From positions 1 to 64,000 of IMG/VR virus record IMGVR_UViG_3300035498_000371: 64,000 bases of DNA. One strand, given 5' to 3'. The translations under genes were made by a program, and so were the position numbers. The notes below the pieces were generated by a model. It saw only the letters and a program-made list of their open reading frames with translations. It searched no databases and was not told the origin of the DNA. The stretch comes from a virus (taxonomy: Duplodnaviria; Caudoviricetes). Below, piece by piece: positions 2 to 59,630 of the stretch (position 1 is its first letter; the number at the start of each line of letters is the position of its first letter).

Positions 2-835
2 CTCAAATCTAAGGGCAATTTAAATATAGCTGATAATGACCCGATTGATATTATAATCAAATTTAGACCTAATTTATCTGAGGATACATCTTATTTATAT
101 ACATTAACAGAAGACTTGGAAGACGAGGGTTATGAAGTTATATGCGTATTGCAAGATTATCTCAAAAGGATTAGATCGGTTGAAGGTAATTTCAATGGAG
201 ATCTTAGAATGCAATTAGGTGCAGTAATTAATGAGTTCAAAGTATTTGCTACACTTAAAGATATTCCAGTTATAACAGCATCTCAGTTAAATAGAACAGC
301 AACATCTTCTATCGATGAAGCAAGGATTAAGAATAAAGCAGATTTAGTTAGACTAATCGGAAGAAGTAATGTTGGTGAGTCAAACTTGATTCTTGAAAAT
401 AGTGACTGGATAGCATTGATAGCTCCAGAGTTTGATAGAACTGGAGTCAAATATCTTGGTATTCAAATGGTTAAGTCTAGATATTATATTCCTGGGGACT
501 TCCATGTTGCATATATGCCTTACGTTAATGGGACTATTAAATTCGTTGAAGATTTCTATTCACCAATTCCTGTACACAAGATTACATTGCGTGAAGAAAT
601 AGCTCTTAATACTGGAGTTAATTCAGCTCAAGGAGTTGCTACAGAGATCAAAGAGTTTACTCAATTCAACGAAGTTAAACTTCCTCAGGATAATAAGGCA
701 AATATGTTTGTTAACGCTAATGCATTCGCAGCGCTATGCATGTATAATACAATTGCTATGCAGGCAGAACAACGACAGATGTGTTCTATCCAAACACCAC
801 AAAAAAGAAATATGTGCAATATAATATCCAGATAG
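2..835 (+). CDS. dnaB: Replicative DnaB-like helicase, C-terminal part (5' end outside the window)
   Basis: Frame is open from base 2; LQDYL and DIPVITASQLNR motifs typical of SF4/DnaB helicases. Confidence 0.85.
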   Translation, partial: LKSKGNLNIADNDPIDIIIKFRPNLSEDTSYLYTLTEDLEDEGYEVICVLQDYLKRIRSVEGNFNGDLRMQLGAVINEFKVFATLKDIPVITASQLNRTATSSIDEARIKNKADLVRLIGRSNVGESNLILENSDWIALIAPEFDRTGVKYLGIQMVKSRYYIPGDFHVAYMPYVNGTIKFVEDFYSPIPVHKITLREEIALNTGVNSAQGVATEIKEFTQFNEVKLPQDNKANMFVNANAFAALCMYNTIAMQAEQRQMCSIQTPQKRNMCNIISR

Positions 836-861
836 CTATATGGCTATCTGGATTATTCTTG

Positions 862-1317
862 CTATATATTTTCTTTTGATTTTTTATTATAGACTTCCAT
901 TGCTGTTCTATTAGCGTTAATGATTCTGCTAGAAATCAATTTCATTGATTCTGCTGTAGGCATTAACAGTTTCTTTTTCGTAAACTGCTTAGTAGAATAC
1001 ATATCGTTGATAAGAAGAATAATGAAATATAGTTCTGTATTACCATAAATATCATAGCATAATAATTTTGGTCTATATTTATACTTAGTCAGTTGCTCAT
1101 CTGTTAGCTCTACCGTTACGCAATATTCATCATCTCTTAATTCATCTATGTAGTCTGAGACTACGTTGTATGAGGTCTGACATAAATCTCCATCATTAAG
1201 ATAATCATTAAACGAAGTATTAGCGTAGCACATCAGAGTATCAGATTTACAAGCAATATATTGATCTAAAGTGTACGTATTTTGTGGTTTCTGATATTCA
1301 TACGTTACTGACGACAT
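862..1317 (-). CDS. Baseplate wedge-like protein (T4 gp53/LysM-like)
   Basis: YRPKLLCYDIYGNTELYFIILLIN resembles the gp53-like RPD-hh-YG-W-h pattern. Confidence 0.55.
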   Translation of the reverse strand: MSSVTYEYQKPQNTYTLDQYIACKSDTLMCYANTSFNDYLNDGDLCQTSYNVVSDYIDELRDDEYCVTVELTDEQLTKYKYRPKLLCYDIYGNTELYFIILLINDMYSTKQFTKKKLLMPTAESMKLISSRIINANRTAMEVYNKKSKENI

Positions 1318-1320
1318 ATT

Positions 1321-1800
1321 TTACACCCCCATATCTGAATCACTGTGAGATATGCCATTGAGTGATTCTACTTTCTTTAGTCTTTTAACTACCTCTTTAA
1401 ACTTCTTCTCCAGCTCATAGTAGCTAAAGATGAAATCAGTGTATTGCTCAGTATCATATAAGCCTATAATCTTTGCATCGTTTATATTTGCTCCAACAAA
1501 TGTAGCAATAAACTTTGTTCCTGCAGGAATTTTCTTCTTATCACTAAAGAAGAATCTTAAATTCATAGGTATATCTACTTCAATATAGTTTTCTGAAGAC
1601 ATTGTTGTAGACCTCTTGGCTCCAGTACTTTTATTCTGTATATTTCTAGTAGAAGTAGATATTGTAGACACATTATCTTGTGTCATTACAACTGGTATTT
1701 TGAATTTGCCTTTAACTGGATTTTTTAAATCAACTTGTTCTTGTAGAATCGCTATCTCAGTTCTTAATTGATCTATATTGAGAGAATTATTACTTTCCAC
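1321..1800 (-). CDS. Hypothetical protein, possibly virion/baseplate-associated
   Basis: 159-aa ORF, GGAGG RBS, directly upstream of the gp53-like gene. Confidence 0.6.
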   Translation of the reverse strand: MESNNSLNIDQLRTEIAILQEQVDLKNPVKGKFKIPVVMTQDNVSTISTSTRNIQNKSTGAKRSTTMSSENYIEVDIPMNLRFFFSDKKKIPAGTKFIATFVGANINDAKIIGLYDTEQYTDFIFSYYELEKKFKEVVKRLKKVESLNGISHSDSDMGV

Positions 1801-2415: not shown

Positions 2416-2426
2416 GTGATTATGAA

Positions 2427-3635: not shown

Positions 3636-3680
3636 AATTATATATTATATTGATAATAAATAGAAAGGAGATTAATTTAT

Positions 3681-4124
3681 ATGGGAAAAGAAATGGTTAG
3701 AGTTGTAGATAATTCTCAACCAAGAATCTCTGCAGAAGAGAAACGTTATCTTGTTTGTATCGAAGAAGATAGTGGAGAAAAAGATTGGGGAATAATGATC
3801 GGTAGAACTGCAGCGTATGAGTATATCAAGGAGCGAATCGAGTATATTAATTTAGATGAATCATTCGTGCTTGTAGAGACTCTTAAATTAGCCGACAGGA
3901 AATCGATTTATTCATTTATGAAATATGCTCAAGACTTCTTCGAAGACAACTTTGATATAGATGATTATATAAAGGGAGATTTTGATGAGAATGATTTCTT
4001 AAGAAGCTCTGACGGAGCAGATCAAAACGAAATAATGCAACAAATTAATCAGGCAAGAAGTGATGGAAATATTTCGACACAAGAGTTCATTGATGGCGGA
4101 ATAAATTCAATTCCATTAGATTAA
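3681..4124 (+). CDS. Hypothetical protein (N-terminal KEMVRVV tag)
   Basis: AAGGAG RBS, TATATTAT at 3641. Confidence 0.75.
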   Translation: MGKEMVRVVDNSQPRISAEEKRYLVCIEEDSGEKDWGIMIGRTAAYEYIKERIEYINLDESFVLVETLKLADRKSIYSFMKYAQDFFEDNFDIDDYIKGDFDENDFLRSSDGADQNEIMQQINQARSDGNISTQEFIDGGINSIPLD

Positions 4125-13312: not shown

Positions 13313-14074
13313 ATGCCTAACATTTGTATTGCAAAATTAGTTATTAAAGGCTATAAAGATAACGTAGATGAATTCTGCAAGATATTAAGAGCAGATTACA
13401 ACTACGGAACTATGGAGTTTTCACATAAGAAGCATTTCTATAGAATCTTTGAAGTATATGATCTTGATGAAGAAATTCATGGCGTAGAAAAAACAAAGAC
13501 TGTAGAAATAGAATGCGCTTGGAGCGTATCTTGTTGCATGTTTGACGAACCGATGTCATATTATGATCAGTGTACAGGAATGCCTTCATACAGTAAACTA
13601 GATCCATATCGCGGCCTTAGTTCAATAAACGATTATAGTCGCGATATATATAAAGAAAAAGAAATGGCCGCATGGCATATTATTCATTCTACTCATATAA
13701 TGGCTGAAACTAGAAGGCTGGGATTATTTATAGAAATAGTTTCAGAGGAACCAGGCATGTGCTTCCAAGAGCATTATAAGATAAACCAAAGCACTCTTGT
13801 TAGTGATGAAACAACAGATTTCTATGAGTTTTATATTGGAGATCATGATACGAAGAAGGAATGGGAAGAAGAGTACGAAAGTGAAATTCCATTAACAGAA
13901 GAAGAATATAAGAAACTACGTGAAGAGGGAGAAGAGTATTACGTTCCTCTGTATGTGGAGATAGATGAGAATTCTTCTATTTATTATCCTACTCCTGTAA
14001 AGAATGTAATGTGCAAAGTCATAGACAACTCTAAAGAGTTTATCCCATTATATGAAAGGAATAAACAGAAATGA
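13313..14074 (+). CDS. DUF1281/YubB ferredoxin-like domain protein
   Basis: MPNxC start, AWS and EEPGMCF motifs. Confidence 0.55.
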   Translation: MPNICIAKLVIKGYKDNVDEFCKILRADYNYGTMEFSHKKHFYRIFEVYDLDEEIHGVEKTKTVEIECAWSVSCCMFDEPMSYYDQCTGMPSYSKLDPYRGLSSINDYSRDIYKEKEMAAWHIIHSTHIMAETRRLGLFIEIVSEEPGMCFQEHYKINQSTLVSDETTDFYEFYIGDHDTKKEWEEEYESEIPLTEEEYKKLREEGEEYYVPLYVEIDENSSIYYPTPVKNVMCKVIDNSKEFIPLYERNKQK

Positions 14075-17409: not shown

Positions 17410-18231
17410 ATGATATCTGGAATAGATTATGATAAAATATATGAAAGTAATGGGTATGGAAAATATAAAATACTTAGGGAAGTTGAACCTAGAATGTATG
17501 GATCATATAAAGCTAGAATGGTTGAAGTTTTATTTCTTCAGACTGGGTATATTGCAACTGTTAAACTGGCAGTTGCTACAGGAAGTCATGCTATTAGAGA
17601 TCCATATTATCCTAAAGTATGTGGAGTTGGATATATGGGAGATACTCATATGGGAAATAAGAAAATATATAAATGCTGGAATGCTATGATTGCCAGGTGT
17701 TATAATCCTGCAACTCCTTGGTATAATTTATATGGAGGTATTGGTATTACTGTATGTGATAGATGGTTATGCTATGAAAATTTTGCTAATGATGTAAAAG
17801 ATCTTCCTGGATATGAAGATTACATAAATAAACCTGGATATGCATTAGATAAAGATATATTACAATCTGGGATTCCTCATAATCAGAAAGTATATTCAAA
17901 AGAAACTTGTTGTTTCATTCCTATAGCAGATAACCATTGTGAAGTTGTTGAACGTAATAGTGGAGATTCATTGATTGGAGTTCGTGAAGTTTCTGAAGGT
18001 AAATTCACTGCTAGGGTTACTCATAATGGAAAAGAACAACATCTTGGGACATTCGATGCTCCTGAATATGCTGCGACAATATTTGATTATTATGCCAGAT
18101 TGTATAATCATAAAGCTCTTAATAATTTAGATGTAGATATTGGAGTCTCATTACAGCATAGGATTGGATGTAATACTGTTCCTATTTGCAAGAAAATTAT
18201 GTGTAAAACTGTAAAAAATGAAAAATTGTAA
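17410..18231 (+). CDS. Free-standing HNH-like homing endonuclease with C-terminal AP2 domain
   Basis: WNAMIARCY..YGGIGITVCDRW..F..D, LDKD, YSKETCCF; AP2-like FTARVTHNGKEQHLGTF; GAGGTG RBS before 17410. Confidence 0.8.
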   Translation: MISGIDYDKIYESNGYGKYKILREVEPRMYGSYKARMVEVLFLQTGYIATVKLAVATGSHAIRDPYYPKVCGVGYMGDTHMGNKKIYKCWNAMIARCYNPATPWYNLYGGIGITVCDRWLCYENFANDVKDLPGYEDYINKPGYALDKDILQSGIPHNQKVYSKETCCFIPIADNHCEVVERNSGDSLIGVREVSEGKFTARVTHNGKEQHLGTFDAPEYAATIFDYYARLYNHKALNNLDVDIGVSLQHRIGCNTVPICKKIMCKTVKNEKL

Positions 18232-18567: not shown

Positions 18568-19062
18568 ATGAAATCAGAAGATATTGAACTATATAGACCA
18601 TATCCCAGTCAGGGATATGGTTATTTTAAAGTAACAGGAATAGATTATTCCAAAAGCAAAGAAAATCCAACGTTACAAATTGTATTTTATGAAACTGGGT
18701 ATGGGGCAACCATATCCTTCAAACAATTTACTTATGGATTAGCAGAAGATTATCATCAAAAATATCCTGCAGATGTTTTAAAGATAGGATATTCAGACGG
18801 TCTATTTAAATCTGACAATCCAAAGGCATGGAAATTGTGGGTTGATATATTACGCAGATATTGTGATAGAAGCCACCCGCAGTTTGATTACTATGGAGCC
18901 GTATATGATTTATATAATATTAAATGGATTCATTATGGTGAATTCCTTAAGTATTATAATTATAGAGAATATATTGGTAGACCAATAGAAAGATTCGATG
19001 ACCCTGAATTAACAGCTCAAGGAAACACTAAAGTAGTGATGGTAAGCGATTGTGTAAAATAA
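18568..19062 (+). CDS. Truncated/diverged paralogue of the 17410 endonuclease N-terminal region
   Basis: YPSQGYGYFKV..FYETGY..W..IL.R..YG parallels YESNGYGKYKI..FLQTGY..W..MI.R..YG; no HNH or AP2 part. Confidence 0.65.
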   Translation: MKSEDIELYRPYPSQGYGYFKVTGIDYSKSKENPTLQIVFYETGYGATISFKQFTYGLAEDYHQKYPADVLKIGYSDGLFKSDNPKAWKLWVDILRRYCDRSHPQFDYYGAVYDLYNIKWIHYGEFLKYYNYREYIGRPIERFDDPELTAQGNTKVVMVSDCVK

Positions 19063-20411: not shown

Positions 20412-20415
20412 TAAA

Positions 20416-21585: not shown

Positions 21586-21599
21586 GGAGGTAGAATGAA

Positions 21600-22526
21600 A
21601 TGGCGGTCTTTGATAAATATTGGAATGAAAGAGCTGAATATGAGAAGAATCATAAAGTAGAAATGGTTCGAGTAATGCCAAGCACCAGACCGGCTTTCAA
21701 TCGGTCAATTCTAATGCAGAATATAGATAGCGTCTCTCAAATGGGAGACGCTGATCTGCTTAGATTCATAAACAGCAATTTCAATAATATCTTAAAGAAT
21801 GTATTTAATGGAGGCAATATATCCAAGCATGTAAAATGCTTTCAGGATGTAAGATTCTTAGATGCATTTATCAATATTATGGTGCAGAGACAATTCTTCG
21901 ATACAGATGAGATTGTTTATATAAATACGATCTGCTACCATTATCTTACGATACCATATGATATGAGAGATCCTCATGTGGTTGACAGAATGATGAAGAT
22001 GTCTGGCATTGTTAATCGTGGTGGAATACCTAGATTATTAGGTTTAGGGTTATCTGATAATTTAGCAAGCTTATTGCTTATCGCTAGATATTCAGATACA
22101 AATCTTAGCGTTGTAGTAAGAAGAGTAAACTTTATTATTATAACACAGCCACCTGAGATTATGTCTCAGAAAATGATATCAGAGATATTCAAAATTCTTT
22201 ACAATGTAATGGAAGATTGGAGTAGAGTATTTCCGTATATTATGACGGACGTGCTTCCGAATTATAGAGAAGATGACCAGAGCACATGGTGGGTTACAGA
22301 TGAAGTGTCTGAAGTAGATTCTACTATGTCTTTATCAGCACTGGAAATCTTAGATAATCTTCCAACTGAAATTATAAGATCAACGCTTATAAACTATGCT
22401 GAGGGGTACGCTATTATTGGTGGGAACAAACCAATTAGATTCTCTATGCGTAGATTGAGTGACGATTATTATCGTATAAATAATGTAATTCTTCAGCTTG
22501 AGTCTGAGGGTATTTATGTACCATAA
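21600..22526 (+). CDS. Hypothetical helical protein (N-terminal KVEMVRVM tag)
   Basis: AAGGAGG RBS; directly follows the tubulin gene. Confidence 0.75.
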   Translation: MAVFDKYWNERAEYEKNHKVEMVRVMPSTRPAFNRSILMQNIDSVSQMGDADLLRFINSNFNNILKNVFNGGNISKHVKCFQDVRFLDAFINIMVQRQFFDTDEIVYINTICYHYLTIPYDMRDPHVVDRMMKMSGIVNRGGIPRLLGLGLSDNLASLLLIARYSDTNLSVVVRRVNFIIITQPPEIMSQKMISEIFKILYNVMEDWSRVFPYIMTDVLPNYREDDQSTWWVTDEVSEVDSTMSLSALEILDNLPTEIIRSTLINYAEGYAIIGGNKPIRFSMRRLSDDYYRINNVILQLESEGIYVP

Positions 22527-24622: not shown

Positions 24623-24825
24623 CAGGTAAAGCGGTTATTGAAATTGACGACCTCTGCTCTTATCTTGGAATTGGAAAGAATACTGCTTACTCGTTATTAA
24701 CGAGTGGTGAAATAGATGCGTTTAAAATTGGAACTGTGTGGAAGATTCCAGTTAGTAGTATAGATGAATACATTTCTAGGAAATGTGAACAGCATAAGAA
24801 GCAGATGTGTGAAATTATAAAATGA
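24619..24825 (+). CDS. Excisionase-like (HTH_17) DNA-binding protein
   Basis: DLCSYLGIGKNTAYSLL..GEI.AFKIG..WKIP. Confidence 0.85.
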   Translation: MTGKAVIEIDDLCSYLGIGKNTAYSLLTSGEIDAFKIGTVWKIPVSSIDEYISRKCEQHKKQMCEIIK

Positions 24826-24903: not shown

Positions 24904-27093
24904 ATGGCAGAATTTGATATTGAAAAACAAATCAACGATTCAATAGCTGGTTTGGATGACTGGAATAAGATGTTGGGCAGAACATTGATGCAGCCGTTTA
25001 AACCAGCGAATTCAGGATCAAGAGCCCTCATGAGTAGTATTCATGTAGAGCATTTACTTGTACCAACTCATGCCGAAGTTCCAACAATTCAGACTGGGTA
25101 TGAGACAGAGTTTGGTAGAAACTCATCATCTTATATTGAGGCTTCGTCTAGATACGAAGTAATATATAAGGTGGATAAATTCCAATTCAAACCAAACCAT
25201 CATTATTATCTTATAGTGAGGGATATGATTACTGGCGAATATGACGTAATAGAGCGAGTAGCATACCATCATAATACTGAGAGTTATGGTTATCTTTGGA
25301 ATAATAAAACACTTGATTCATTAAAGCCAGGAGATATTATTGCACAGGGAGATGTAATTAAAACAAGTACTGGATTTGATGAGTATGGAAATAAGATGAA
25401 CGGTGTTAATCTGTTAACGATGTATATTAGTTGTGCACAGAATATGGAAGATTCAGTAATCTTATCAGAATCAGCAGCTAAGAAACTTGAGACATCGTTA
25501 ATCAAGAATACAGATATTGCAATCAACGATAATGATGTTTTAATCAATAGATATGGAGATGAGAATATCTATAAGGCTTTTCCAGATATTGGAGAAGAGA
25601 TCAAAGACGGTATATTCTGTTCTATTAGAAGAACCGAAAATGAAACAGCATTATATACTCTAGCACAGCCAATGCTTAGAGATAGCCTTATAACAGATAG
25701 AAATATTCTGTTTGATGGTATTGTAGCAGATATAGATGTATCTTGTAATAATCCAGAAGCATTACAGGAATCATTCTATAACCAGCAGTTGTATTATTAT
25801 CATACAGAGAAAATTAGATTTGCTAAAGAGATTAACGATCTCATTGGACCAATAGCAATGACTGAGAAGATGAGTTATAATCTTCAAAAGCTTTATGCGA
25901 TCTGTAGAGATATAACTAATGGAAAGCAGTATTATAAGAATAATCAGTTTAATAACGTATCAATGAGTGTTACTGTAATTGAGCCTTTAGGAATGGCACC
26001 TGGAGATAAATTGGCTGACCGTCATGGCGGTAAAGGTGTTGTATCTATGATACTTCCAGATAATCTGATGCCTAGACTCGATAATGGTAGAGTGGTTGAA
26101 GCCATCAAGAATCAGTCTACTTGTATTAATAGAGAGAATCTTGGTCAGTTACATGAAATGTCTCTGTCATTCATAGGAATGAGATTGCTTGATTATTTTG
26201 ATCTTGGATTTTTACATCCTACAGAAATGATAGAAATGCTCTATAAGTTTGTATCTATGGTAGATAAGCATGAAGCCGATATGATGATTAGTGGAGTAGA
26301 TTTCTTTGATGAAACCGAAGCAGCGGCGTTTATAAATATCTATTGTGGTGAAGGAAGAATTATTCTTAGTACTCCTCCATTCACAACCCCAGTAAGTCTC
26401 GATACTATATCTGCAATCTATGATGAATTCCCATTCATTAAACAGTGCAGAGTAGAAGTGCCAATGAAAGATTCAGCTGGAAATATTAGGTATATTGAAA
26501 CTCGTAGAAGACTTGTAGCTGCAGAGATTTATAATTACAGATTAAAGCAGTATGCTGAAGAGAAATTCTCTGTAACATCTTTGGCTGCAACTAATCTTAA
26601 GAATCTCAACACAAGATCTAAAGCAAATAAAATGTATGAGGCTAAGTTTACTAAGACTCCTATCATGTTTGGTCCAATGGAGTCTGGAGATGAAGCTCAT
26701 ATGGGAATGCAGTATGTAATTATGAATTTGATGCTGTATTCTAGCTCACCGCAAGCAAGAAGATTATTTGAGCAGTTATTGATTGGAGATCCATACAATA
26801 TCGATATAAAGCTTGATAAGAATTCTAAGAATAGAAATGCGGAAATAATTAATGCTCTTCTTAAAACTATGGGGTTAGAGATTATATTCAGAAAGATCCC
26901 TAAGGTTAAAAAGAAGATGGTCGGTCTTGTAATGTGTAAGACTGTGCCAAATGCGCAGCATCAGTATAAAACCAATATTAGGGAAATTATGGGTCATTTT
27001 GATGAGTTAGATTCTAAATATAATATAGCTATCCAGAGACCTAATGATAAACCTATGGTTAACCTCGTTATGTGTAAGGAGGTAAAGAAATGA
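24904..27093 (+). CDS. Multisubunit RNA polymerase beta, C-terminal half (probably non-virion RNAP)
   Basis: NSGSRALM, NMEDS, GDKLADRHGGKGVVS, R.NLGQ, FGPMESG. Confidence 0.9.
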   Translation: MAEFDIEKQINDSIAGLDDWNKMLGRTLMQPFKPANSGSRALMSSIHVEHLLVPTHAEVPTIQTGYETEFGRNSSSYIEASSRYEVIYKVDKFQFKPNHHYYLIVRDMITGEYDVIERVAYHHNTESYGYLWNNKTLDSLKPGDIIAQGDVIKTSTGFDEYGNKMNGVNLLTMYISCAQNMEDSVILSESAAKKLETSLIKNTDIAINDNDVLINRYGDENIYKAFPDIGEEIKDGIFCSIRRTENETALYTLAQPMLRDSLITDRNILFDGIVADIDVSCNNPEALQESFYNQQLYYYHTEKIRFAKEINDLIGPIAMTEKMSYNLQKLYAICRDITNGKQYYKNNQFNNVSMSVTVIEPLGMAPGDKLADRHGGKGVVSMILPDNLMPRLDNGRVVEAIKNQSTCINRENLGQLHEMSLSFIGMRLLDYFDLGFLHPTEMIEMLYKFVSMVDKHEADMMISGVDFFDETEAAAFINIYCGEGRIILSTPPFTTPVSLDTISAIYDEFPFIKQCRVEVPMKDSAGNIRYIETRRRLVAAEIYNYRLKQYAEEKFSVTSLAATNLKNLNTRSKANKMYEAKFTKTPIMFGPMESGDEAHMGMQYVIMNLMLYSSSPQARRLFEQLLIGDPYNIDIKLDKNSKNRNAEIINALLKTMGLEIIFRKIPKVKKKMVGLVMCKTVPNAQHQYKTNIREIMGHFDELDSKYNIAIQRPNDKPMVNLVMCKEVKK

Positions 27094-30941: not shown

Positions 30942-32752
30942 TGATAGAGAATCAAAGGCAGTTTATACATGAATATAATGACAAATATCGTGAAAGATTC
31001 AATAAGGATCTTTTCGTTCGTCACGATTCAGATATTGTAGATGCTCTACGTTATATTATCTATAGCATAGAGCGCAATTCTACATTCACTATTAAAGTTT
31101 TAAACTTTGAGGTTATCGATAACTATGATGATGTAAATCATATTCTTTGGGAGTATGAGGATTTCATCGTTAATAAAGGTAAGAAACCTTCAGAGAGCGC
31201 AAAAAAGAAATCATACGGTAAGAAAAAGAAAGTTAATATCTATGATTTCATAAATCTTAATGATTCAGATATCAATCTTATTAAGGTTACGTATTATATT
31301 CAGATTACTGAAAAGAAACGTGGTCTTGTAGATGATACTCTAGTGGTGTATATTGCCATACCAAGAATAGTAGACGACTTCTACTTCAGGTTGAATGGAA
31401 ATATTTATTCTGCAATGTACCAGATTGTAGATGCTAGTACTTATAATAATAGCGCTAGTAAGAATTCTAAGAAACAGTCTATTACTTTTAAGACAGTATT
31501 CACACCAATTCGTATCTATAGATACGCAATAAATCTTAAGGATGTAAATGGCTATGCAATTCCGTGTAGCTATTTTATTATCAACGTATTCAAAAAATCA
31601 GTTTTAGTTATGAAATATTTCTTGGCTAAATTCGGATTCTTTGGATGTATGGATTTTCTCCATATAAATGGAGTTAATGTGGTAACCTCTGTTGATAGCA
31701 TCGATATGGAGAATAATTATATCTTCCCAATAAGAGATTATTACATTATAGCACCAAAGTACTTTTACGATAATATCCAGATTATGCAGTCGTTTGTATA
31801 TACAATATATTCTGTATTGAATTATATGAAAGATGCTGAGTTTGGAGATATTTTCGGAACTGATATTTACGTAAGAGCTTTAGGTGCTGATTTCACCAAT
31901 AAAAACGTAGATTCAATCTATGAGAAAGGTTTGTCTCTTCTTGAATCATTAGAGTTCAACTATGATGATATGAGCAGAGCAGATCTTAAGTTAGATCTTG
32001 AGGACAAGGATGATATATATAAAGTTCTTAGATGGATGATTTATGAGTTTAATGCTCTACGCCAGAAAGATAATTTAGATATATCTACCAAGAAAGTAAG
32101 ATATGCTGAGTATATTGCATCCCTGTATGCAACTCGTTTAGCCAATGGTATTTATAGAGTATCAGATAAAGGAGATAAGGCTGATTTATCTGATATAAGA
32201 AAGGCGATTATGATACCGCCAATGTATCTTATAAATGCTATTGTTAAATGTGAGCTGGTTAACTACAAAAACTGCGTAAATGATCTTGATGCTCTTATAG
32301 CATTAAAATATACTTACAAGGGAATTGCGGGAATCGGGGAAAAATCTAATGCAGTATCTGATGCATATCGATCGATTCAACCAAGCCATTTAGGAAGGGT
32401 TGATATCGATAGTTCATCGAACTCAGATCCAGGAGTTTCTGGAACAATATGTCCGTATGTTGTCTTACACGATGGTCATTTTGATGAATACGTGGAGCCG
32501 AGTACGTGGCGTGATGATATCACACGTCTTATAGATACTTATAAGGCTATAGATTCGAGACTTGTAATGTGTAAAATCATAGACGACCATAATCTTTCTG
32601 ATAAACGAAAAGATAACAAAGTGGTGGAAGAGTGTGTATCTATTGCAAAGTCTTTATTAGATATGCCGAGATACGTTTTAGAAACTGAGCAATATATTAA
32701 CGGTTTCGATATTTTTGGAGATGGCCTTATGTTCTATCTAAACGACGAATAA
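30941..32752 (+). CDS. Multisubunit RNA polymerase beta, N-terminal half (probably non-virion RNAP)
   Basis: IP....YF.LNG..Y..MYQ; R.I.PSHLGRVD..SS.SDPG.SG.ICP. Confidence 0.85.
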   Translation: MIENQRQFIHEYNDKYRERFNKDLFVRHDSDIVDALRYIIYSIERNSTFTIKVLNFEVIDNYDDVNHILWEYEDFIVNKGKKPSESAKKKSYGKKKKVNIYDFINLNDSDINLIKVTYYIQITEKKRGLVDDTLVVYIAIPRIVDDFYFRLNGNIYSAMYQIVDASTYNNSASKNSKKQSITFKTVFTPIRIYRYAINLKDVNGYAIPCSYFIINVFKKSVLVMKYFLAKFGFFGCMDFLHINGVNVVTSVDSIDMENNYIFPIRDYYIIAPKYFYDNIQIMQSFVYTIYSVLNYMKDAEFGDIFGTDIYVRALGADFTNKNVDSIYEKGLSLLESLEFNYDDMSRADLKLDLEDKDDIYKVLRWMIYEFNALRQKDNLDISTKKVRYAEYIASLYATRLANGIYRVSDKGDKADLSDIRKAIMIPPMYLINAIVKCELVNYKNCVNDLDALIALKYTYKGIAGIGEKSNAVSDAYRSIQPSHLGRVDIDSSSNSDPGVSGTICPYVVLHDGHFDEYVEPSTWRDDITRLIDTYKAIDSRLVMCKIIDDHNLSDKRKDNKVVEECVSIAKSLLDMPRYVLETEQYINGFDIFGDGLMFYLNDE

Positions 32753-33034: not shown

Positions 33035-33355
33035 ATGAGCAAAGAAATGGTTAGATTAGTTCCTATAGGAAGCTGTCCTATATGTGGTCATAACCAATTC
33101 GTTGTAGCTGAATCTGAACTCAATATTTTTCTTACAAATAGAGATGGAGAGATAGTTGATTCTAGCAATTGTTCTTATAAGTGTGAAGGAATGTGTATAA
33201 ACTGCAAGACTAGGATGCCGATGTTGGCTACTCCTGAAAGGTTCATTCCTTTAACACCATTAAGGAAACTTCTTTATGAGAATATTAATCACAACGAGTT
33301 AGGTTTGTCTGTAGATGAGGATGTGGTTCCTAATCCTATGGAGGTAGCTAAATGA
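33035..33355 (+). CDS. Zn-ribbon protein (N-terminal KEMVRLV tag)
   Basis: CPIC...CINC. Confidence 0.7.
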   Translation: MSKEMVRLVPIGSCPICGHNQFVVAESELNIFLTNRDGEIVDSSNCSYKCEGMCINCKTRMPMLATPERFIPLTPLRKLLYENINHNELGLSVDEDVVPNPMEVAK

Positions 33356-34011: not shown

Positions 34012-34295
34012 TGCAAGATAATAAAGTAGAAATGTGTAAACTCCATACTCCATACGTATGTAAGCATTGCGGAGAAGAGCTTTTATTTTTTGTCACTAAT
34101 AGAAATACTCTGATTGATTACAAGAATCTTTTTGTTAACGGTAAAACCTCACCAGAAATATATGCGGAACTTCAAAATAAGAATATACGTTCAATGAAAT
34201 GCATTGTATGCGGAAAGTATTATCTTATTGATTGGAGCGAGCATTTCCCACAACAATTATTAGATAGAAATAGTTTGAGCAAATTTGGGGTATGA
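34011..34295 (+). CDS. Zn-ribbon protein (N-terminal KVEMCKL tag)
   Basis: CKHC...CIVC. Confidence 0.7.
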   Translation: MQDNKVEMCKLHTPYVCKHCGEELLFFVTNRNTLIDYKNLFVNGKTSPEIYAELQNKNIRSMKCIVCGKYYLIDWSEHFPQQLLDRNSLSKFGV

Positions 34296-38964: not shown

Positions 38965-39213
38965 ATGAAAAGAGCATTATTAAGTTACATTGATCCTTAT
39001 GATCATCGCCGCAGCGATGCTATTGATCGTTATGAATGGGGAATGTCTAGCGATAAACAACTTGATGAAGAGTTGCTCATGGTTGACCTTATTCAGAAAT
39101 ATGGTATCTATCCATATAGCGATCGAGAATTACAGCATTTTGCTGAGCGTGGTGATATGGTGCAGCCACTTAGAAATATGTGCACAATAGTGCAGAAAGG
39201 AGCTGTAGCATAG
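38965..39213 (+). CDS. Small hypothetical protein (C-terminal RNMCTIV tag)
   Basis: GGAGG RBS; TATATTAT at 38893. Confidence 0.7.
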   Translation: MKRALLSYIDPYDHRRSDAIDRYEWGMSSDKQLDEELLMVDLIQKYGIYPYSDRELQHFAERGDMVQPLRNMCTIVQKGAVA

Positions 39214-40571: not shown

Positions 40572-42488
40572 ATGTTTAGGATCAAAGGTTACGAACCAGG
40601 GGCAAATATAACGGTTCTTAATACGATTTATCATAAGAGCAGAAAAGATCCAGAGACTGGAAAATATGGGAAAGATTCCATAGATATTATTTTTAAAGAT
40701 TTGGATACAGGGCAGAAAAAGATTGAGCATATAGTTGAACCGACGTATACTTATTATATAGCTAATGATGACGTTCAGATTCCATATAATCAATTATTTA
40801 CATCTAAAGATAACGTTCATCCAGTCATATGTAAATATCGAGATCTTCTGAAGGATATAGCAGAGAAGACAAATAATACAGAATTCTTTTATGATAATAT
40901 AAAGAATGGTAATTATAGAGAGAATAATAAGCTTCTTACAATTCCAAAAATATTTGGTGCTGATACTCATATAGAAGATTTTTATAGAGCAGAATTCGAT
41001 AGAACTTATAAGAATGATCCATATGTTCCAAGTAAATTGTATTTCGATATAGAGGTTGATGGTAAAAATATGAGAGGAGATTTTCCTCAGCCTGGAGAAT
41101 GTCCTATAAATGCAGTAACATTGGTAGATGATTTAAATAAGCAGGTTTATACACTATTGCTAAATAATCCTGATAATCCTCTTATAGCAGAATTTGCAGC
41201 ACAACCAAATCTTACAGCAAAACTAAAAGATTTTGTTAGGAAAAGTGTTGGCGGATGGAAACAAGAGAAGAGATTTGGATTAGATGTATTTGAATACCAT
41301 ATTTTGTTTTATGATGAAGAAATCAAATTAATCTACGATATGTTTAAGTATATCAATATGGTTAAGCCAGATTTTGCATTAGCGTGGAATATAGCATTCG
41401 ACTTACCATATATTATTGAACGTATTAGAGTATTAGGATATGATCCATTAGATATTATTTGTCATCCAGACTTCAAAGAGAAAGAGTGTTATTATTATAT
41501 AGATAAGAGAGCTCAGAAGTTTGAAGAAAGAGGAGATTATGCAGCAATATGTGCATATACAATTTATCTTGATCAGTTGATTACATTTGCATCTCGTCGT
41601 AAAGGACAGAAGAAAGGAGCAATCACAAGTTATAAGCTTGATTTTGTTGGTTCGGTTATTGCAAAGGTTAGAAAGCTCGATTATTCTCATATAACTCATA
41701 GTGTTATTGAATTACCATATCTTAATTATGAAGTCTTTGCGTTCTATAACGTAATGGATACAATAGTTCAGTTATGTATTGAACGTAAGGTTGGTGATAT
41801 TGATTTTGTATTCAATAAAGCATTAACGGTTAATACTAGATTTTCTAAAGTTCATAGGCAGACGACTTATTTAGTTAATCGTGGTATAAAAGATTTCTAT
41901 GATATGGGTTATGTGATGGGTAATAATATCAATAAATCTAACGAAAAAGAAGGTTTTGCAGGAGCATTCGTAGCAGATCCTACTTTAGTTAGTGATAAAC
42001 CTAAGGTTAAAATAAATGGTAGAGCAATTAATATTTGTGATAACCTAGACGATTTCGATTATAAAGCACTTTATCCGTCCATTATTGACGAATCAAATAT
42101 GGCACCAAATACTCAGCATGGTAAAATATTGTTGCCTGAAAAGTTGGACGCTAAGGAGAATAGATTCAATAACGAATACTTTGATAGGAGCGTTTGGTTT
42201 GTTGAAGATTTGGTATGCCACAATAGATTGGATTTCTGTCAAAGATATTTGCATCTTGCAGGTTATGAAGAAATGTATGATGATATAATCAAATACTTCT
42301 CAACGATAGAAAATCCTGCGGGAAGATTTAGATATTCTGATCCTATAAGTGGTAAGAGATATATGTACCATATTATCAACAATCAGCAAAATAGGATTAT
42401 GTGCAGAATATCTCAAGATGGAGAAAAGAGAAGAATGTGTTTTAAGGTAGATAAAATGCCTAATGGTATATTACCTAACGTGATGTAA
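40572..42488 (+). CDS. Family B DNA polymerase, N-terminal polypeptide (3'-5' exonuclease plus motif A)
   Basis: FDIEV, AWNIAFDLPY, YNVMD, FAGAFV, DFDYKALYPS; lacks motifs B and C. Confidence 0.9.
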   Translation: MFRIKGYEPGANITVLNTIYHKSRKDPETGKYGKDSIDIIFKDLDTGQKKIEHIVEPTYTYYIANDDVQIPYNQLFTSKDNVHPVICKYRDLLKDIAEKTNNTEFFYDNIKNGNYRENNKLLTIPKIFGADTHIEDFYRAEFDRTYKNDPYVPSKLYFDIEVDGKNMRGDFPQPGECPINAVTLVDDLNKQVYTLLLNNPDNPLIAEFAAQPNLTAKLKDFVRKSVGGWKQEKRFGLDVFEYHILFYDEEIKLIYDMFKYINMVKPDFALAWNIAFDLPYIIERIRVLGYDPLDIICHPDFKEKECYYYIDKRAQKFEERGDYAAICAYTIYLDQLITFASRRKGQKKGAITSYKLDFVGSVIAKVRKLDYSHITHSVIELPYLNYEVFAFYNVMDTIVQLCIERKVGDIDFVFNKALTVNTRFSKVHRQTTYLVNRGIKDFYDMGYVMGNNINKSNEKEGFAGAFVADPTLVSDKPKVKINGRAINICDNLDDFDYKALYPSIIDESNMAPNTQHGKILLPEKLDAKENRFNNEYFDRSVWFVEDLVCHNRLDFCQRYLHLAGYEEMYDDIIKYFSTIENPAGRFRYSDPISGKRYMYHIINNQQNRIMCRISQDGEKRRMCFKVDKMPNGILPNVM

Positions 42489-42506
42489 TTGGAGGTGTAT
42501 TATATT

Positions 42507-43145
42507 TTGGAATTAAGTATAAGCGATTTAGTTTATATAAATGATGCGGCGAAGTCCCTGAAATACAGTGACTTCGTCTTTATAAATAATCTACTGGTTG
42601 GTATAGATAATATAAATACGTATACAAGCAAGGTTATTCTTGATGTAAATAAGCTATCTAACGTATCATTGATTGGATTGAGTTTTAATCAGAGAGAACT
42701 ATCTAAATTTGTGAAATCTCTATCAGTAGAGTCATCATTCTATATAGATGAAAATCAACCAATAAATAAAATATATAGCACTGCAGGTGCAGTAGAGTTA
42801 AATATTCATATTGATTCAGTGATGAATAATCTTGTAGCAGCAAAGATTAATCAGAGTTTAGATATAGATAATCTTATGATTAATTCAGAAGATGTGACTG
42901 CTGATATGGAAAAGTTATTTAGCATGAGAAAGGGAGACGGAGCATTCTATTATGTGAGCCATGATAACCATTATATGACTTTATTTAATGGATTGCTCCC
43001 ATTGAATAAATCTGACAAAATATTCCTATCGATATATGACGCAGGGTATGGAACATTCACTGCAAGATTTATTGTAAAGAAATCAAAATTCACAATTATG
43101 GTTTATGTGTCTTATCTTTCAATACCAAAGAAAGGACCTCAATAA
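42507..43145 (+). CDS. Hypothetical protein downstream of polB (TTG start)
   Basis: GGAGGTG RBS at 42491. Confidence 0.7.
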   Translation: MELSISDLVYINDAAKSLKYSDFVFINNLLVGIDNINTYTSKVILDVNKLSNVSLIGLSFNQRELSKFVKSLSVESSFYIDENQPINKIYSTAGAVELNIHIDSVMNNLVAAKINQSLDIDNLMINSEDVTADMEKLFSMRKGDGAFYYVSHDNHYMTLFNGLLPLNKSDKIFLSIYDAGYGTFTARFIVKKSKFTIMVYVSYLSIPKKGPQ

Positions 43146-54496: not shown

Positions 54497-55571
54497 ATTT
54501 GTGTTTAGATATATACGCAACTATATACCCCATGGTTGATTCCATGCATCCCCGTTACAGGGAATGATCAGACTATACGTACATCCTTAGAATACCTAAG
54601 GAGCTGGATTTTTCTTCCGCCATTAGCTTGCGGTTTTACATTAAGGCTTTCGCCGCCCACGCAATGGGCCAGTCGTTAGACGTAATATTAAATTATTGCA
54701 CAATACGAACCATATTTCTATATATTTTCTTTCCTGTCCTATCGATCATATATCCAGCATATGGACCAAATGCTATTTTTCTACCATTACCGACCATATT
54801 CTTTAGACTTATTTCTTCATAACCTATCAAATCGGAAACTTCTGATCTTCCATTACAGACTATTCTATCTTCATCGTCATTATACACTTCATAAATATTG
54901 ACTATTTTTACAGACTTAGCTGGAGAGGATTTTCTATCTTCTCTAAAAGCCTGAGATATATTGTCTGATTGGGTTCCCCATTTTAAATTGGAAACGTGAT
55001 TATTAAGTTTATCGTTATCTTTATGCATAACTACTGGTAGATTATCTGGATTCGGAATGAATGTTTTAGCCACTAATCTATGTATTGATTCATTCTTTCT
55101 ATGCCCATCGTCGCAATCTTCTAATGCTGTTCTCAAATAACCAGAATTGCTTACAGCAGTTCTCATAGTATGACCGTTTTCGTTTATTACAATTCCAGAT
55201 TCATTTATTTTATATTTTCCATTATATCCTGGTATTTCTTTCATCATGATTCTATTTCCTCCTTAAACTTTTGATAGAGCAAAATGGCTATATCATATTA
55301 TTTAAGAAGTTAATATTATTGTGCGTTATTAATATTTTCGTAACTGCACGTTGGCTTGTTAATAGTAGCTGCAGGATTTAACCATACTACCATCCTTATA
55401 TCTTTTTTCTGCTTTCGCCGCATTCACGCTTACCTTTTGAGTTACGTTGTAGCGATATAAGGCTCTTGACCAATGAGTCGCAGTTTTAACACAGGAGAAC
55501 TAACAGCTTCCGCTATTAGCTGTGGTATTTAAACCGTATTCTTTATATTACTTTATACGGCTTTATTTCTC
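54497..55571 (-). ncRNA. Group I intron in the terminase carrying an HNH endonuclease (boundaries uncertain by 1-3 nt)
   Basis: gtctaacgactg and cgtatagtct (P7 elements); a P6-like stem encloses the HNH ORF; removal restores VERNG-GYG. Confidence 0.8.
54693..55247 (-). CDS. Intron-encoded NUMOD4-HNH homing endonuclease
   Basis: KEIPGYNGKYKINESG; IHRLVAKTFIPNPDNLPVVMHKDNDKLNNHVSNLKW. Confidence 0.9.
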   Translation of the reverse strand: MMKEIPGYNGKYKINESGIVINENGHTMRTAVSNSGYLRTALEDCDDGHRKNESIHRLVAKTFIPNPDNLPVVMHKDNDKLNNHVSNLKWGTQSDNISQAFREDRKSSPAKSVKIVNIYEVYNDDEDRIVCNGRSEVSDLIGYEEISLKNMVGNGRKIAFGPYAGYMIDRTGKKIYRNMVRIVQ

Positions 55572-57053: not shown

Positions 57054-57183
57054 TTAAGATCTCCTCCTTTCTATTTTGCATTAAGTAAATGTTCCGCCTG
57101 GCAAAATCATAAGAGTTAAAATATATTATGACTTTATATTAAAGCTTTAGGCTTAAATATAATATTTTAAGGAGGAACAAATT

Positions 57184-57756
57184 ATGGCATTCAACAAACA
57201 GGCAGAGATTACAGCTATGATCTCAGATCCTAAGTACACATCAGATTGGATTGCTGCATCAACAGATCTTCTTGAGAAATATCCAGATCAGGGAGTGGAT
57301 ATGGAACATCTTAAAAACTCTGGACTTACAGCCATGCAGATCAATATCGTTGCTGAATTGGTAAAGCATTTCAACAATGATTTCTTATCAGCATACGAGT
57401 TCGTTGCAAATAACAAATACAACGATACACAGCTGCAGGTTATCATGAAGGCATTAGATGATGGAATGGCTTTCGATGATGTGATGAGCATTGCTGACGA
57501 TTCAACATCTTATGCTAAACTCAATTGGTTACTGATAGGTGTTAAGGAAGGGCTCGACAACTTCAGAGATCCTATCTATAAGAACTATCATCCAGATCAG
57601 TTACAGGAGATTTACTCTAGCTGGAAGGATGGAGTTAAGTTCGATGATTTCGATAGAGTAGATTTCGATGCAAGACTTATGCAGGTTATTCGTCATGCAC
57701 GTTGCATTGGTCTTACAGTTGAGATTAGCGACGAAAAGAAACTGACAATATATTAA
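57184..57756 (+). CDS. Hypothetical helical-repeat protein
   Basis: Repeats Y/F...Q(L/M)..I...L..G; AAGGAGG RBS; TATATTAT at 57122. Confidence 0.7.
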   Translation: MAFNKQAEITAMISDPKYTSDWIAASTDLLEKYPDQGVDMEHLKNSGLTAMQINIVAELVKHFNNDFLSAYEFVANNKYNDTQLQVIMKALDDGMAFDDVMSIADDSTSYAKLNWLLIGVKEGLDNFRDPIYKNYHPDQLQEIYSSWKDGVKFDDFDRVDFDARLMQVIRHARCIGLTVEISDEKKLTIY

Positions 57757-57878
57757 AGACGAAGTTTATATCTTATTAAGGCTGATTATATCCTATAAAT
57801 TTACAATTCTCAGTGCAAAAAATAATAAGCAAAACGGACCGGACTAGGCTATTATGCCTAGTCCATACGTTCCGCTTT

Positions 57879-59630
57879 TTATAGTTTAACAATATTAGAA
57901 TAATTCACTGAATCATTATCTAAACGATTCAATCCAATAGACTGTAATGGGAAGTTCTTTAATGAATCACTAATGATTTCTCCAAAGTCTACAAACTCTA
58001 ATACCCATTTTGGTACTGGGCTATCTAACGGTAATGCTATTACATTAACCTTAGAACCAAGAGTTGGAGAATCTAGTAATCTACATAACTTCTCATACTC
58101 TACTGGATAAAGATCTTTAATCTTGCTTACATTCTTCTTAGTAACATCGATCTTGATCTTTATAATAGAATTTCTTTCCTCAAGGTTTATTGCTGGCATA
58201 TCATCATCTCTCATTTCATTATAAATGAGGCACGCTACTATACCATTAATTTCAAGAGGATTCTTACCATACGAACTCATTGCAGCTACATTATCTGGTC
58301 GATAATATTTTGTTTCTCCGTTCATTATGCTATCATAAATACTGTTCTCCATCATAACTAATTTCTTCATAATAGCAATCTGATCAATATTATCTGCATT
58401 CATGATATCTTCGTAAAGAATCTCTTTGAACTCACTCTTAATATCGTCAGGAAGAGTAGATTTATCTATTGGTAATCCTGCTATGGCCAATCTACTACCC
58501 TCCGGTATTATATTTCCTTCCTGTAGCATTTGTAGCGATGCATAATTACGTCTATGGATTGTTAATAATGCTCTTAAGAAATAGAATTCGTTCTTCATCA
58601 CCATTCTGCATTTTGTTCCTTCGACATAGCTTCCTGTAAGTTTTGTATATTCATTCAAATAATCGACTACAAGAGCACTACATACGTAAGCTATGATATT
58701 TATAATTGAATACTTCAAAGAATCCTGAGGGATAAGTTTCGCAGGTTCAATATATCGATCCAGTTCGATAGTTTCATCTGTATAGAAATCATAATCAAGT
58801 CTTTGTTCTACTATCTCGCACATTACTCGTTTTTTATGATCTCCAAACTCATCTGGATCTGCAATATCAACCATATTAAATTTCTCTCTCTTAATCTTCA
58901 TAGGAATATTATAAACTTTATCCAGTACGAATCTATACCATGCGTCGAATGATACAATAGTACTATCTGTATCTACTATACAAACTGCGTCACGCTGCAT
59001 ATACTCTATTCTATCCAGCTTGTCTATATAGAAGTGAGGATAATATACATATTCCTTAATAAGATCTACAAGAATATCTAGTTCTTTTCTTATAGTCTTC
59101 GGTGGTTTATTAGGATTCATAAAGATATTAGGAGTAATCTTTTCCTTACCATCTTTACCCTCCTCGAATAATGGAGCACCGCCGAGATTACTAAGAATCT
59201 TAATAAGAAGATCTGTAACTACTGGAAGATCACAAAACGTATATAGATTATTCTTATAATATAATCTATTAATATCCTCCTGTGGAAGATCTCTTAGATA
59301 CTCCCATACCAAACCCATTTCCTTTTCGGTCGGTATCCACACTGCCATATCAGCAGTATTCATAAGCTTATAAAAACATTCTGCTACTGTAATATCCCTA
59401 TCCAGTATAGCAGAATCCAAACAATGACGATTATCTTTTTCATGCTCAACGTTATTTATAAACGTAATTACTTCATTTAAACTATTGAATTTTATATTAT
59501 TCGCCAATAAGGATTCAAATAAAGTAATACTGCATGATATATAAGATCTACCTTGTCTAGTAACTGCCTCTGCTACATATAGATTATAATACATAGACGT
59601 TGGAGCTCCTAGAACACCGTAAGTTGCGTT
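57879..59630 (-). CDS. Family B DNA polymerase, C-terminal polypeptide, exon 2
   Basis: NATYG (motif B), VTRQGR, VDTDS (motif C), KNE..F, RRNY. Confidence 0.88.
   Translation of the reverse strand, partial: NATYGVLGAPTSMYYNLYVAEAVTRQGRSYISCSITLFESLLANNIKFNSLNEVITFINNVEHEKDNRHCLDSAILDRDITVAECFYKLMNTADMAVWIPTEKEMGLVWEYLRDLPQEDINRLYYKNNLYTFCDLPVVTDLLIKILSNLGGAPLFEEGKDGKEKITPNIFMNPNKPPKTIRKELDILVDLIKEYVYYPHFYIDKLDRIEYMQRDAVCIVDTDSTIVSFDAWYRFVLDKVYNIPMKIKREKFNMVDIADPDEFGDHKKRVMCEIVEQRLDYDFYTDETIELDRYIEPAKLIPQDSLKYSIINIIAYVCSALVVDYLNEYTKLTGSYVEGTKCRMVMKNEFYFLRALLTIHRRNYASLQMLQEGNIIPEGSRLAIAGLPIDKSTLPDDIKSEFKEILYEDIMNADNIDQIAIMKKLVMMENSIYDSIMNGETKYYRPDNVAAMSSYGKNPLEINGIVACLIYNEMRDDDMPAINLEERNSIIKIKIDVTKKNVSKIKDLYPVEYEKLCRLLDSPTLGSKVNVIALPLDSPVPKWVLEFVDFGEIISDSLKNFPLQSIGLNRLDNDSVNYSNIVKL

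Follow-up and report, generated by a model that had tools for sequence, protein, structure and literature searches.

What would lead proteins as different as a DNA polymerase, a DNA ligase and the subunits of an RNA polymerase to carry the same short peptide in their tails? The question is raised by the first 64 kb (the window, 64,000 nucleotides) of a 238.8-kb jumbo-phage contig, IMG/VR record IMGVR_UViG_3300035498_000371, which has a G+C content of 34% and an estimated completeness of ~76% (CheckV). An earlier reading of this DNA (the original prediction) had listed 23 copies of a peptide tag on about 16 unrelated proteins and had proposed that a single phage receptor binds it, serving either import into a phage nucleus or attachment to a clamp or scaffold. 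Here we report that the tag is selected as a peptide, that it changes in concert across unrelated proteins, and that it is probably the clamp-interaction motif of a phage-encoded sliding-clamp-like protein (42507-43145), its predicted partner.

The contig and its relatives

The nearest cultured relatives of this phage are the Bacillus phages AR9 and PBS1, the beta-C subunit of the non-virion RNA polymerase being just 33% identical. Megablast of the window DNA against 50,697 phage records returned zero matches. We assigned identities by mapping the proteins onto the annotated AR9 genome and by Pfam searches, which identified DnaB, Dda, two topoisomerase II subunits, UvsX, SbcC/SbcD, an NAD-dependent DNA ligase, a split family-B polymerase (PolB-N and PolB-C), RNase HI, a superfamily 2 (SF2) helicase, GroEL, the subunits of both RNA polymerases and the virion module. 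Scanning with a beta-C profile yielded 80 loci at 31-76% identity. For comparison we used the full contigs of relatives, two of them complete or near-complete (G002 and G003) and a further four (G004, G005, G007 and G014).

A short peptide is enriched near the ends of non-virion proteins

In the clade of the present genome, the tag follows the consensus [KR]-x-M-[CV]-x-[IV]-[IV]. It takes the form of a five-residue hydrophobic strand with Lys or Arg before it and often Asp or Pro after it, and its copies are short linear motifs in tails or loop insertions beyond the catalytic folds. Translation confirmed all 23 of the peptide strings in the original prediction at their Met-codon coordinates (those at 54713 and 58823 lie on the minus strand), and the count of roughly 16 tagged proteins in the window was about right; genome-wide, the carriers number ~30. 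Two copies, KRYMYHII and VTMCYIA, look degenerate, yet they align with clear copies in relatives. A weak string returned by the pattern search, KARMVEVL (17518), is unconserved and probably due to chance.

We compared the 68 window proteins with 2000 within-protein shuffles, a control that the original prediction had called for. The pattern [KR].{1,2}MC was seen 17 times versus 1.74 expected, MC.[IV][IV] 7 times versus 0.18, and [KR].{1,2}M[CV].[IVL][IVL] 17 times versus 0.48. For none of the three patterns did any shuffle attain the observed count (0/2000), placing the tag far above the shuffled proteome. Over the whole genome, MC.[IV][IV] occurs 13 times (~0.6 expected), and similar figures were obtained for the relatives at ~63-65% identity (G002, 13 versus 0.8; G003, 11 versus 0.6); in AR9 it occurs 0 times versus 0.3 expected. 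When gapped tripeptides within the terminal 35 residues were scanned without bias, MC..V came first and MC.I second in the genome, and among all gapped tripeptides genome-wide the only ones above these two were zinc-finger CxxC patterns and low-complexity runs. The predicted bias toward protein ends is also there: 18 of 25 strict instances are located no more than 30 residues from an end, compared to 7.5 expected (p = 1.8e-5), and the same terminal bias is seen in two relatives.

The tag is equally selective with respect to function. When proteins were sorted by AR9 homology, 13 of 28 non-virion nucleic-acid enzymes carried it, versus 0 of 20 virion homologues (Fisher p = 2e-4), in line with the earlier expectations that functional classes would differ and that virion proteins would lack it. 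Four of the five subunits of the non-virion RNA polymerase are tagged (beta-N, beta-C, beta'-C and the AR9 gp225 homologue, the fifth subunit), as against 0 of 4 subunits of the virion RNA polymerase. For the remaining subunit, beta'-N, the next gene in all three genomes encodes a small protein with a C-terminal tag. A capsid-packaging signal was rejected, given that neither the virion proteins nor any of the four virion RNA polymerase subunits is tagged.

The signal resides in the peptide

Might the signal lie instead in the nucleic acid, as a promoter, a terminator or an RNA element that is read in frame, or be an artefact of chance or composition? The hexamer ATGTGY does occur out of frame: of its copies in the sense frames, 20 are in frame, with 9 more in frame 1 and 2 in frame 2. 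Against such a signal, codon usage at the Cys, Ile and Val positions of the tag is the same as that of the genome, and in orthologues the tag Cys is replaced by Val, Ala or Ile, exchanges that need two base changes. The tag also bears no likeness to the AR9 promoter consensus sequences (PMC5312081), and an artefact would have to contend with the shuffling results. Together with the frame bias, these observations led us to reject a DNA- or RNA-level signal, to which we assign a negligible probability.

In IMG/VR relatives with 58-76% beta-C identity, the tag is kept at identical positions as an island within variable tails. These islands and the genome-like codon use bear out the claim that conservation is at the protein level. 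The exchange of Cys with Val, Ala and Ile indicates that the residue acts as a small hydrophobic one and is neither catalytic nor metal-binding. An intein or split-intein junction was rejected as well, since the Cys varies (Val, Ala, Ile, Tyr, Met) and the tails are too short, with 3-12 residues after the tag. Collectively, these data show that the tag is real and selected at the protein level, that it lies near protein ends and that it is confined to non-virion proteins.

Each lineage has its own version of the tag

The original prediction had raised the possibility that the tags are lineage-specific additions, and AR9 indeed has none of the tails, insertions or tags. The strict MC form disappears at ~58% beta-C identity, and two contigs at 65% are already without it. 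Alignment of orthologues from G004, G005, G007 and G014 revealed that the same tail positions are filled in at least 10 unrelated proteins, with each lineage using a peptide of its own. The present genome shares the version [KR]-x-M-C/V-[KR]-I-V (MCKIV) with G002 and G003. In G004 the version is M-[Y/I/M]-[D/E]-L-V (MYDLV; examples are KMYDVV, MIELV and MMDIL), in G005 it is [V/A]-[I/A]-K-[R/V]-V (VIKRV at three C-termini, AAKIV), in G007 [V/A]-I-[R/K/S]-F-V (VIRFV, PIKFV, MKIIKFV) and in G014 L-F-[K/E]-[V/I]-[I/L] (LFKVI; PLFKVI, PLFEII). When each pattern was counted in each genome, the diagonal of the matrix read 13/13/11, 12, 9, 20 and 9, with off-diagonal counts near expectation; as the lineage patterns were defined after some instances had been seen, the absolute enrichments are somewhat inflated, and genome specificity is unaffected.

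In G014 (locus 135313-137544), the tail of beta-C carries QKMLFE units in tandem, at least five of them. More widely in the family, beta-C tails have two to seven tandem repeats that are short, hydrophobic and lineage-specific (PFIH, KPFT, xLF, PI.F). Among distant relatives, the tails of the non-virion beta-C hold arrays of 3-7 repeats, including ~7 copies of [DEP]LF as well as PFIH and KPFT.

The simplest cause of one motif changing in concert across at least 10 unrelated proteins is a single co-evolving partner. On sequence grounds, then, the concerted evolution of the tag implies one shared partner. The idea of a single receptor for a short, beta-strand-like docking peptide is thus strongly supported, as judged from protein-level conservation and the concerted lineage versions.

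A protein with a predicted sliding-clamp fold is encoded next to PolB-N

Immediately past the PolB-N stop codon is a GGAGG site, followed by an open reading frame (ORF) whose longest form spans 42489-43145 and whose probable start is a TTG at 42507. Its AlphaFold2 (AF2) model, built from a 12-sequence alignment, has a mean predicted local distance difference test score (pLDDT) of 88.8 and a predicted template-modelling score (pTM) of 0.85. In Foldseek, the model's top 50 matches were all sliding clamps (PCNA, 9-1-1, DnaN, PCNA of African swine fever virus), with 115 matches at E <= 0.001. VIA-align gave Z scores of 10.8 for PCNA and Rad1, 9.5-9.8 for gp45 of T4 and RB69 (1CZD, 1B77, 6DRT, 3U61) and 9.2 for herpes simplex virus (HSV) UL42 bound to the polymerase C-terminus; 189-198 of the 218 clamp residues were covered, and 334 chains scored Z >= 8. 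The gp45 entries matched include ones with bound ligase and polymerase peptides. Thus, the model predicts that ORF 42507-43145 adopts the two-domain, pseudo-symmetric beta-alpha-beta-beta-beta fold of clamps. At the sequence level, neither the protein nor its profile had a Pfam, PHROG or meaningful PDB match, a tblastn search of the phage collection with the protein returned zero matches, and the clamp families PF02916 and PF02768 had zero matches in the genome. Known clamp and shell families were rejected by sequence, with zero matches to PF02768, PF02916 and the chimallin family PF25677.

The distribution of this gene parallels that of the tag. It lies directly behind or overlaps PolB-N in the present genome, G002, G003, G004 and G014, and the clamp profile (A3) found a homologue in 13 of the 13 tail-bearing genomes searched (the present genome, G002-G007 and G013-G018). 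No match to the profile was obtained in AR9, PALS_2 or phiKZ. At the clamp's position in AR9 is gp130, which is a DEDD exonuclease and was rejected for that reason as a counterpart of the clamp. Hence, the part of the original prediction that pointed to a clamp or scaffold stands insofar as a clamp-fold gene co-occurs with the tag, having been found in all tail-bearing genomes searched and in no tail-less one; the binding role itself is a matter of prediction, taken up below. Few core genes are as poorly conserved as that of the clamp, whose mean identity is 36% compared to a median of 55%. Such low conservation fits a drifting tag and argues that the partner is not the host beta clamp, which is conserved.

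The tag as a probable clamp-interaction motif

Clamp folds bind short terminal peptides of many DNA enzymes, and the tagged proteins match the clients of such folds; on this basis we propose the clamp as the partner. The tag carriers (polymerase, ligase, RNase H, helicases, nucleases, RNA polymerase) have their parallels among the proteins known to bind PCNA, the beta clamp or gp45. The concerted tag versions, the fold, the synteny with PolB-N, the phyletic co-occurrence and the low conservation of the clamp add to this reading. The tag would dock into the peptide-binding groove between the clamp's domains, in the fashion of a PCNA-interacting peptide (PIP) box or a gp45-binding tail. Placed on flexible tails and loops, tags would tether their clients to clamp-bound phage DNA. 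The predicted clients are the split PolB, DnaB, the SF2 helicase, ligase, RNase HI, homing and HNH nucleases and Avd, along with small helix-turn-helix (HTH) and zinc-ribbon proteins and the four tagged subunits of the non-virion RNA polymerase. Tandem copies (three in PolB-N, four in beta-C) may add avidity. By analogy with gp45, gp33 and gp55 of T4, a tethered non-virion RNA polymerase would link late transcription to DNA undergoing replication.

Several observations weigh against this proposal. The clade's tag has neither the Gln nor the aromatic residue of known clamp-binding motifs and does not match their consensus (Q-x-x-L-x-x-F-F or Q-L-[SD]-L-F). Only the distant G014 version, QKMLF, is similar, its QKMLFE units resembling the bacterial clamp-binding consensus Q-x-x-L-F. 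As the original prediction had cautioned for gyrase, RecA, SbcC and Dda, replication and repair proteins are not uniformly tagged: UvsX, topoisomerase II, Dda, SbcCD and primase have no tag. Conversely, some carriers, namely two unassigned proteins and several small ones, have no obvious DNA role. Profile A3 detected no clamp in relatives G009-G012 (31-39% identity, at which sensitivity may be limiting), and one of these, G010, still has a repetitive beta-C tail. Searches for a clamp loader gave no match to PF13177 and, for PF00004, nothing above threshold; its P-loop matches, to the Dda-like gene and an ORF of 1096 residues, fell short. In this regard, the phage may have a divergent loader, or the clamp-fold protein may be a non-ring factor, like UL42 or Rhc, instead of a hub ring. 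Finally, ~25 other genes share the clamp's phyletic pattern, being present in the tagged group and not in AR9.

Other partners and other roles

Concerted evolution requires a shared partner without naming which, and we regard it as unlikely, though not negligibly so, that the tag docks to some other group-specific hub. Such a hub might act as scaffold or receptor and gather or import non-virion nucleic-acid enzymes into a compartment for replication and transcription, possibly one organized by the FtsZ-like tubulin. The ~25 genes just mentioned are untagged and include the FtsZ-like gene (20416-21585) and those of acidic proteins at 29502 and 30309; moreover, tagging of the non-virion RNA polymerase and not of the virion enzyme would fit sorting by destination. 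The import role put forward in the original prediction found no support, however. The chimallin model PF25677 (phiKZ-type, able to detect phiKZ gp54) had no match at E <= 10 in this record, itself ~76% complete, and the tubulin homologue resembles FtsZ, to which all of its best sequence matches in the PDB belong. For the acidic proteins, no family was found in PHROGs or the Atlas, nor in Pfam for 29502, the one of the two searched there, and both were rejected as receptors; 29502 and 33352 are unrelated to the clamp profile. A further point is that, among the candidates, only the clamp has a fold with an established function in binding terminal peptides. The FtsZ-like tubulin was considered as a candidate receptor because its gene is specific to the tagged group and because the 12-residue spacing of tandem tags corresponds to an estimated ~40 Å in an extended chain, close to the subunit repeat of a tubulin-type filament. 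In a bolder variant, which we think quite improbable, the tag would be an address code sorting ~30 non-virion proteins, among them the whole non-virion RNA polymerase, homing nucleases and Avd, into a chimallin-independent compartment for replication and transcription, with the clamp as client or gatekeeper and the lineage versions as private codes against co-infecting relatives.

Two other explanations were considered. Tags might pair with one another as beta-strands, so that proteins with multiple tags (PolB-N, beta-C, DnaB) and those with single ones form a network or condensate that needs no dedicated receptor. This predicts the same concerted pattern and is in keeping with the strand-like hydrophobic core, with tandem copies spaced 5-12 residues apart like hairpins or meanders, and with the Q/N/Y/G-rich low-complexity protein adjoining RNase H. 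But with five residues the core is very short for one protein to pair specifically with another, and position 3 is basic in some lineages and acidic in others, contrary to simple self-complementarity. Such pairing seems less likely than a single partner, and we consider it very unlikely overall. The tag could alternatively be a degradation or processing signal, an unfoldase degron or a protease site, that sets when non-virion proteins are turned over; its location at extreme N- and C-termini and its restriction to non-virion proteins are consistent with this. Yet the non-virion RNA polymerase and the DNA polymerase must last into late infection, tandem or internal copies would be needless, and cleavage at N-terminal copies (residues 3-8) would be pointless. 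The ATP-dependent protease gp082 of AR9 also has no counterpart among the best AR9 matches of the genome's proteins. We judge this explanation highly improbable.

Some further features of these proteins can be mentioned. The FtsZ-like tubulin lies in an operon (window 19509-22526) with a glucosaminidase-like protein and the tagged protein of 308 residues, an arrangement found in all tagged relatives and not in AR9. Three unrelated proteins end in ...SEY: the tubulin (20416-21585, plus strand; NSEY), a protein of unknown function with 312 residues (39453-40391, minus strand; DMSEY) and an acidic one of 629 residues (genome 187369-189258; DMSEY). In relatives, the tubulin orthologues have ENY, EEY or KKY as their last residues. 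These ends recall the EEY tails of alpha-tubulin and EB1, and ...SEY may be a second shared C-terminal peptide. The protein adjoining RNase HI (genome 186279-187403; 374 residues) is conserved, with ~45 homologues. Its N-terminal 132 residues are rich in Q/N/Y/G/P/F and prion-like in appearance (AF2 pLDDT < 50), and its C-terminal domain is all-helical, without a family assignment. With AF2 giving a disordered N-terminal part and an all-helical C-terminal domain, we rejected this neighbour as a split Rhc-like clamp.

Comparison with known systems

The clamp proposed here resembles gp45 of T4 and RB69, a phage clamp protomer of ~220 residues for which the model predicts the same fold. T4 also has short hydrophobic peptides at the ends of its polymerase (gp43), ligase and transcription proteins (gp33, gp55). 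The systems differ in that there is no sequence similarity (no PF02916 match), no loader was found here and the motif is another one. Furthermore, tags in this phage are on the RNA polymerase subunits themselves and on ~30 proteins, so that the predicted clients far exceed the number known for T4. The PIP box (Q-x-x-[LIM]-x-x-[FY]-[FY]) and the beta-clamp motif (Q-L-[SD]-L-F) likewise place one motif at the ends or in loops of many DNA enzymes that use one hub, and QKMLF of G014 is similar to Q-x-x-L-F. However, those motifs are conserved across kingdoms, whereas the tag drifts between close lineages, and the version of the present clade lacks their Gln and aromatic residues.

Protein import into the chimallivirus nucleus (PicA and others) is comparable in that it selectively addresses the proteins of replication and transcription in jumbo phages with two RNA polymerases, but the present genome has no chimallin match. 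We know of no linear import motif in chimalliviruses, nor are AR9-type relatives of this phage known to form a nucleus. HSV-1 UL42 (1DML) shares the clamp fold, acts without a loader and grips the C-terminal tail of its polymerase; it serves one client, in contrast to the ~30 tag carriers here. In phiKZ, which has a polymerase split into DNAP-N and DNAP-C, the protein Rhc is an RNase H fused to a clamp-derived domain and contacts the polymerase thumb and palm by a large surface, not by a peptide tail (bioRxiv 10.64898/2026.09.30.755723). Both are jumbo phages with a split family-B polymerase, a clamp-derived accessory protein (by prediction in our case) and no canonical clamp. Unlike Rhc, the clamp-fold protein stands alone after PolB-N, RNase HI is separate and tagged, and profile A3 draws a blank in phiKZ.

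Tagged sites in the window and beyond

The tagged sites of the window, together with the clamp-fold gene, are listed below.

Table 1. Tag-bearing segments and the proposed receptor gene, in window coordinates
Feature	Position	Strand	Conservation and remarks
DnaB-like helicase, C-terminal tail, two tags (RQMCSI, KRNMCNII)	773..826	+	Orthologues end KGNMCRIV, KKVMCTIV; AR9 DnaB without tail
147-residue protein of unknown function, N-terminal GKEMVRVV	3684..3707	+	Conserved: KEMVRII, KEMVKIV
253-residue protein of unknown function, KNVMCKVI near C-terminus	14000..14023	+	Relatives: IMCKIV, LVMVKKV, LVAAKVV
Free-standing 284-residue protein, C-terminal KKIMCKTV	18190..18213	+	Relatives: KEMCIIV, RDMCTII, KCMCMVI
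Paralogue of the 284-residue protein, KVVMVSD (degenerate, weak)	19030..19050	+	String present; no orthologue support
308-residue protein 3' of FtsZ-like gene, KVEMVRVM at residue 22	21654..21677	+	Relatives: KEMCRVI, VEMVKIV, VNMVRIV
68-residue HTH_17 protein (Pfam), C-terminal KKQMCEII	24796..24819	+	Kept in five relatives; KMYDVV in G004
Non-virion RNA polymerase beta-C tail, first double tag (KKKMVGLVMCKTV)	26908..26946	+	
Non-virion RNA polymerase beta-C, C-terminal second double tag (KPMVNLVMCKEV)	27046..27084	+	
NAD-dependent DNA ligase, N-terminal extension, two tags (QKVMCSIV, PVTMCYIA)	27432..27557	+	Conserved
Non-virion RNA polymerase beta-N, RLVMCKII 60 residues before C-terminus	32558..32581	+	
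106-residue zinc-ribbon protein, N-terminal SKEMVRLV	33038..33061	+	Relatives: KEMCRII, IEMVNIV, KEMCHII
94-residue zinc-ribbon protein, N-terminal KVEMCKLH	34023..34046	+	Relatives: KEMCRIV, KEMCTVI, NEMCKIT
82-residue protein, C-terminal LRNMCTIV	39169..39192	+	No orthologue in G002, G003
PolB-N (exonuclease half), C-terminal tail, three tandem tags	42354..42449	+	Met codons exactly 36 nucleotides apart
Protein with predicted sliding-clamp fold, proposed tag receptor	42507..43145	+	AF2 model, Foldseek, VIA-align
HNH endonuclease (Pfam HNH_3) between two terminase ORFs, C-terminal YRNMVRIV	54699..54722	-	
PolB-C, internal insertion, two tags (KFNMVDIA, KRVMCEIV)	58809..58883	-	

In the enzymes, the tagged segments are ones that the AR9 orthologues lack. 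Homology of beta-C to AR9 gp088 stops near residue 660, and both tag positions of its tail are filled by lineage-specific versions in many relatives. The tagged segment of beta-N is missing in its AR9 homologue, gp104. Pfam domains of the ligase begin at residue 193, and the AR9 ligase is without the tagged segment. The three PolB-N copies, 12 residues apart, are retained in G002, G003 and G004, each in its own lineage version, and the tail is absent from AR9 gp131. The PolB-C insertion is missing from AR9 gp151 and appears elsewhere as FDIMELI plus LKMMDIL (G004) and KAISFLE plus KVIDFVE (G007). Similarly, the tag position of the 147-residue protein is occupied by KMYDVV in G004, QMVARVV in G005 and KEVIKIL in G007. 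The 284-residue protein, described in the original prediction as an HNH-AP2 endonuclease, has no Pfam match.

Outside the window, carriers include RNase HI, the SF2 helicase, beta'-C (with a tail ending EMVKIVDKK) and Avd of a diversity-generating retroelement. Over the genome as a whole, the tag is also borne by several HNH-type nucleases, by small proteins of the HTH and zinc-ribbon kinds and by several others whose function is unknown. A NADAR protein has a truncated copy, ending ...TMC; in its G002 orthologue the tag is absent at the same position. The proteins encoded at genome 71170-71955 and 120753-121157 end exactly in ...KNKMC and ...NKTMC. The first of these looks truncated, its orthologues running on with a fuller tag (KNLMCKKV, KILCTPVRK). 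GroEL, a chaperonin-like homologue of AR9 gp227 (genome 83086-84813), has no tag; its KGNMVDLL is a conserved core segment.

Some genes are broken up into separate ORFs, in keeping with introns. That of the terminase large subunit occupies two (window 53636-57053, minus strand), with the tagged HNH gene (54693-55247) between them, and PolB-C is also in two (57879-60655, minus strand). Non-virion beta'-N is in three ORFs here (genome 212245-214747, minus strand) and in a single one in relatives. The DnaB-like gene is split over the contig ends (window 1-835; genome 237764-238843), so that the contig represents a circular permutation or is terminally redundant.

An intergenic TATATATTATAA-like motif was seen at window positions 3639, 10577, 13060, 18530 and 57120 on the plus strand and 16062 on the minus strand. 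It is similar to the early-promoter consensus of AR9, AAATATATATTAT (PMC5312081), and has 31 sites genome-wide, mostly intergenic.

Implications for AR9-related jumbo phages

Jumbo phages of the AR9 and phiKZ types have so far been described as lacking a sliding clamp. Our models suggest that a large uncultivated sister group of AR9 encodes a clamp-fold protein that is found by structure prediction only, and a peptide tag found throughout the proteome of the same group has the features expected of a clamp-binding motif. If the two do interact, the tagged proteins would constitute the first client map of a clamp in this phage group, obtained straight from sequence. A multisubunit phage RNA polymerase would then be held to the replication clamp by its own subunits, a convergence with T4 late transcription. 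The data also suggest that homing endonucleases and a diversity-generating retroelement may be brought to replicating DNA. With at least five versions of the tag, the group would offer a natural experiment in which a hub and ~30 client motifs have changed together.

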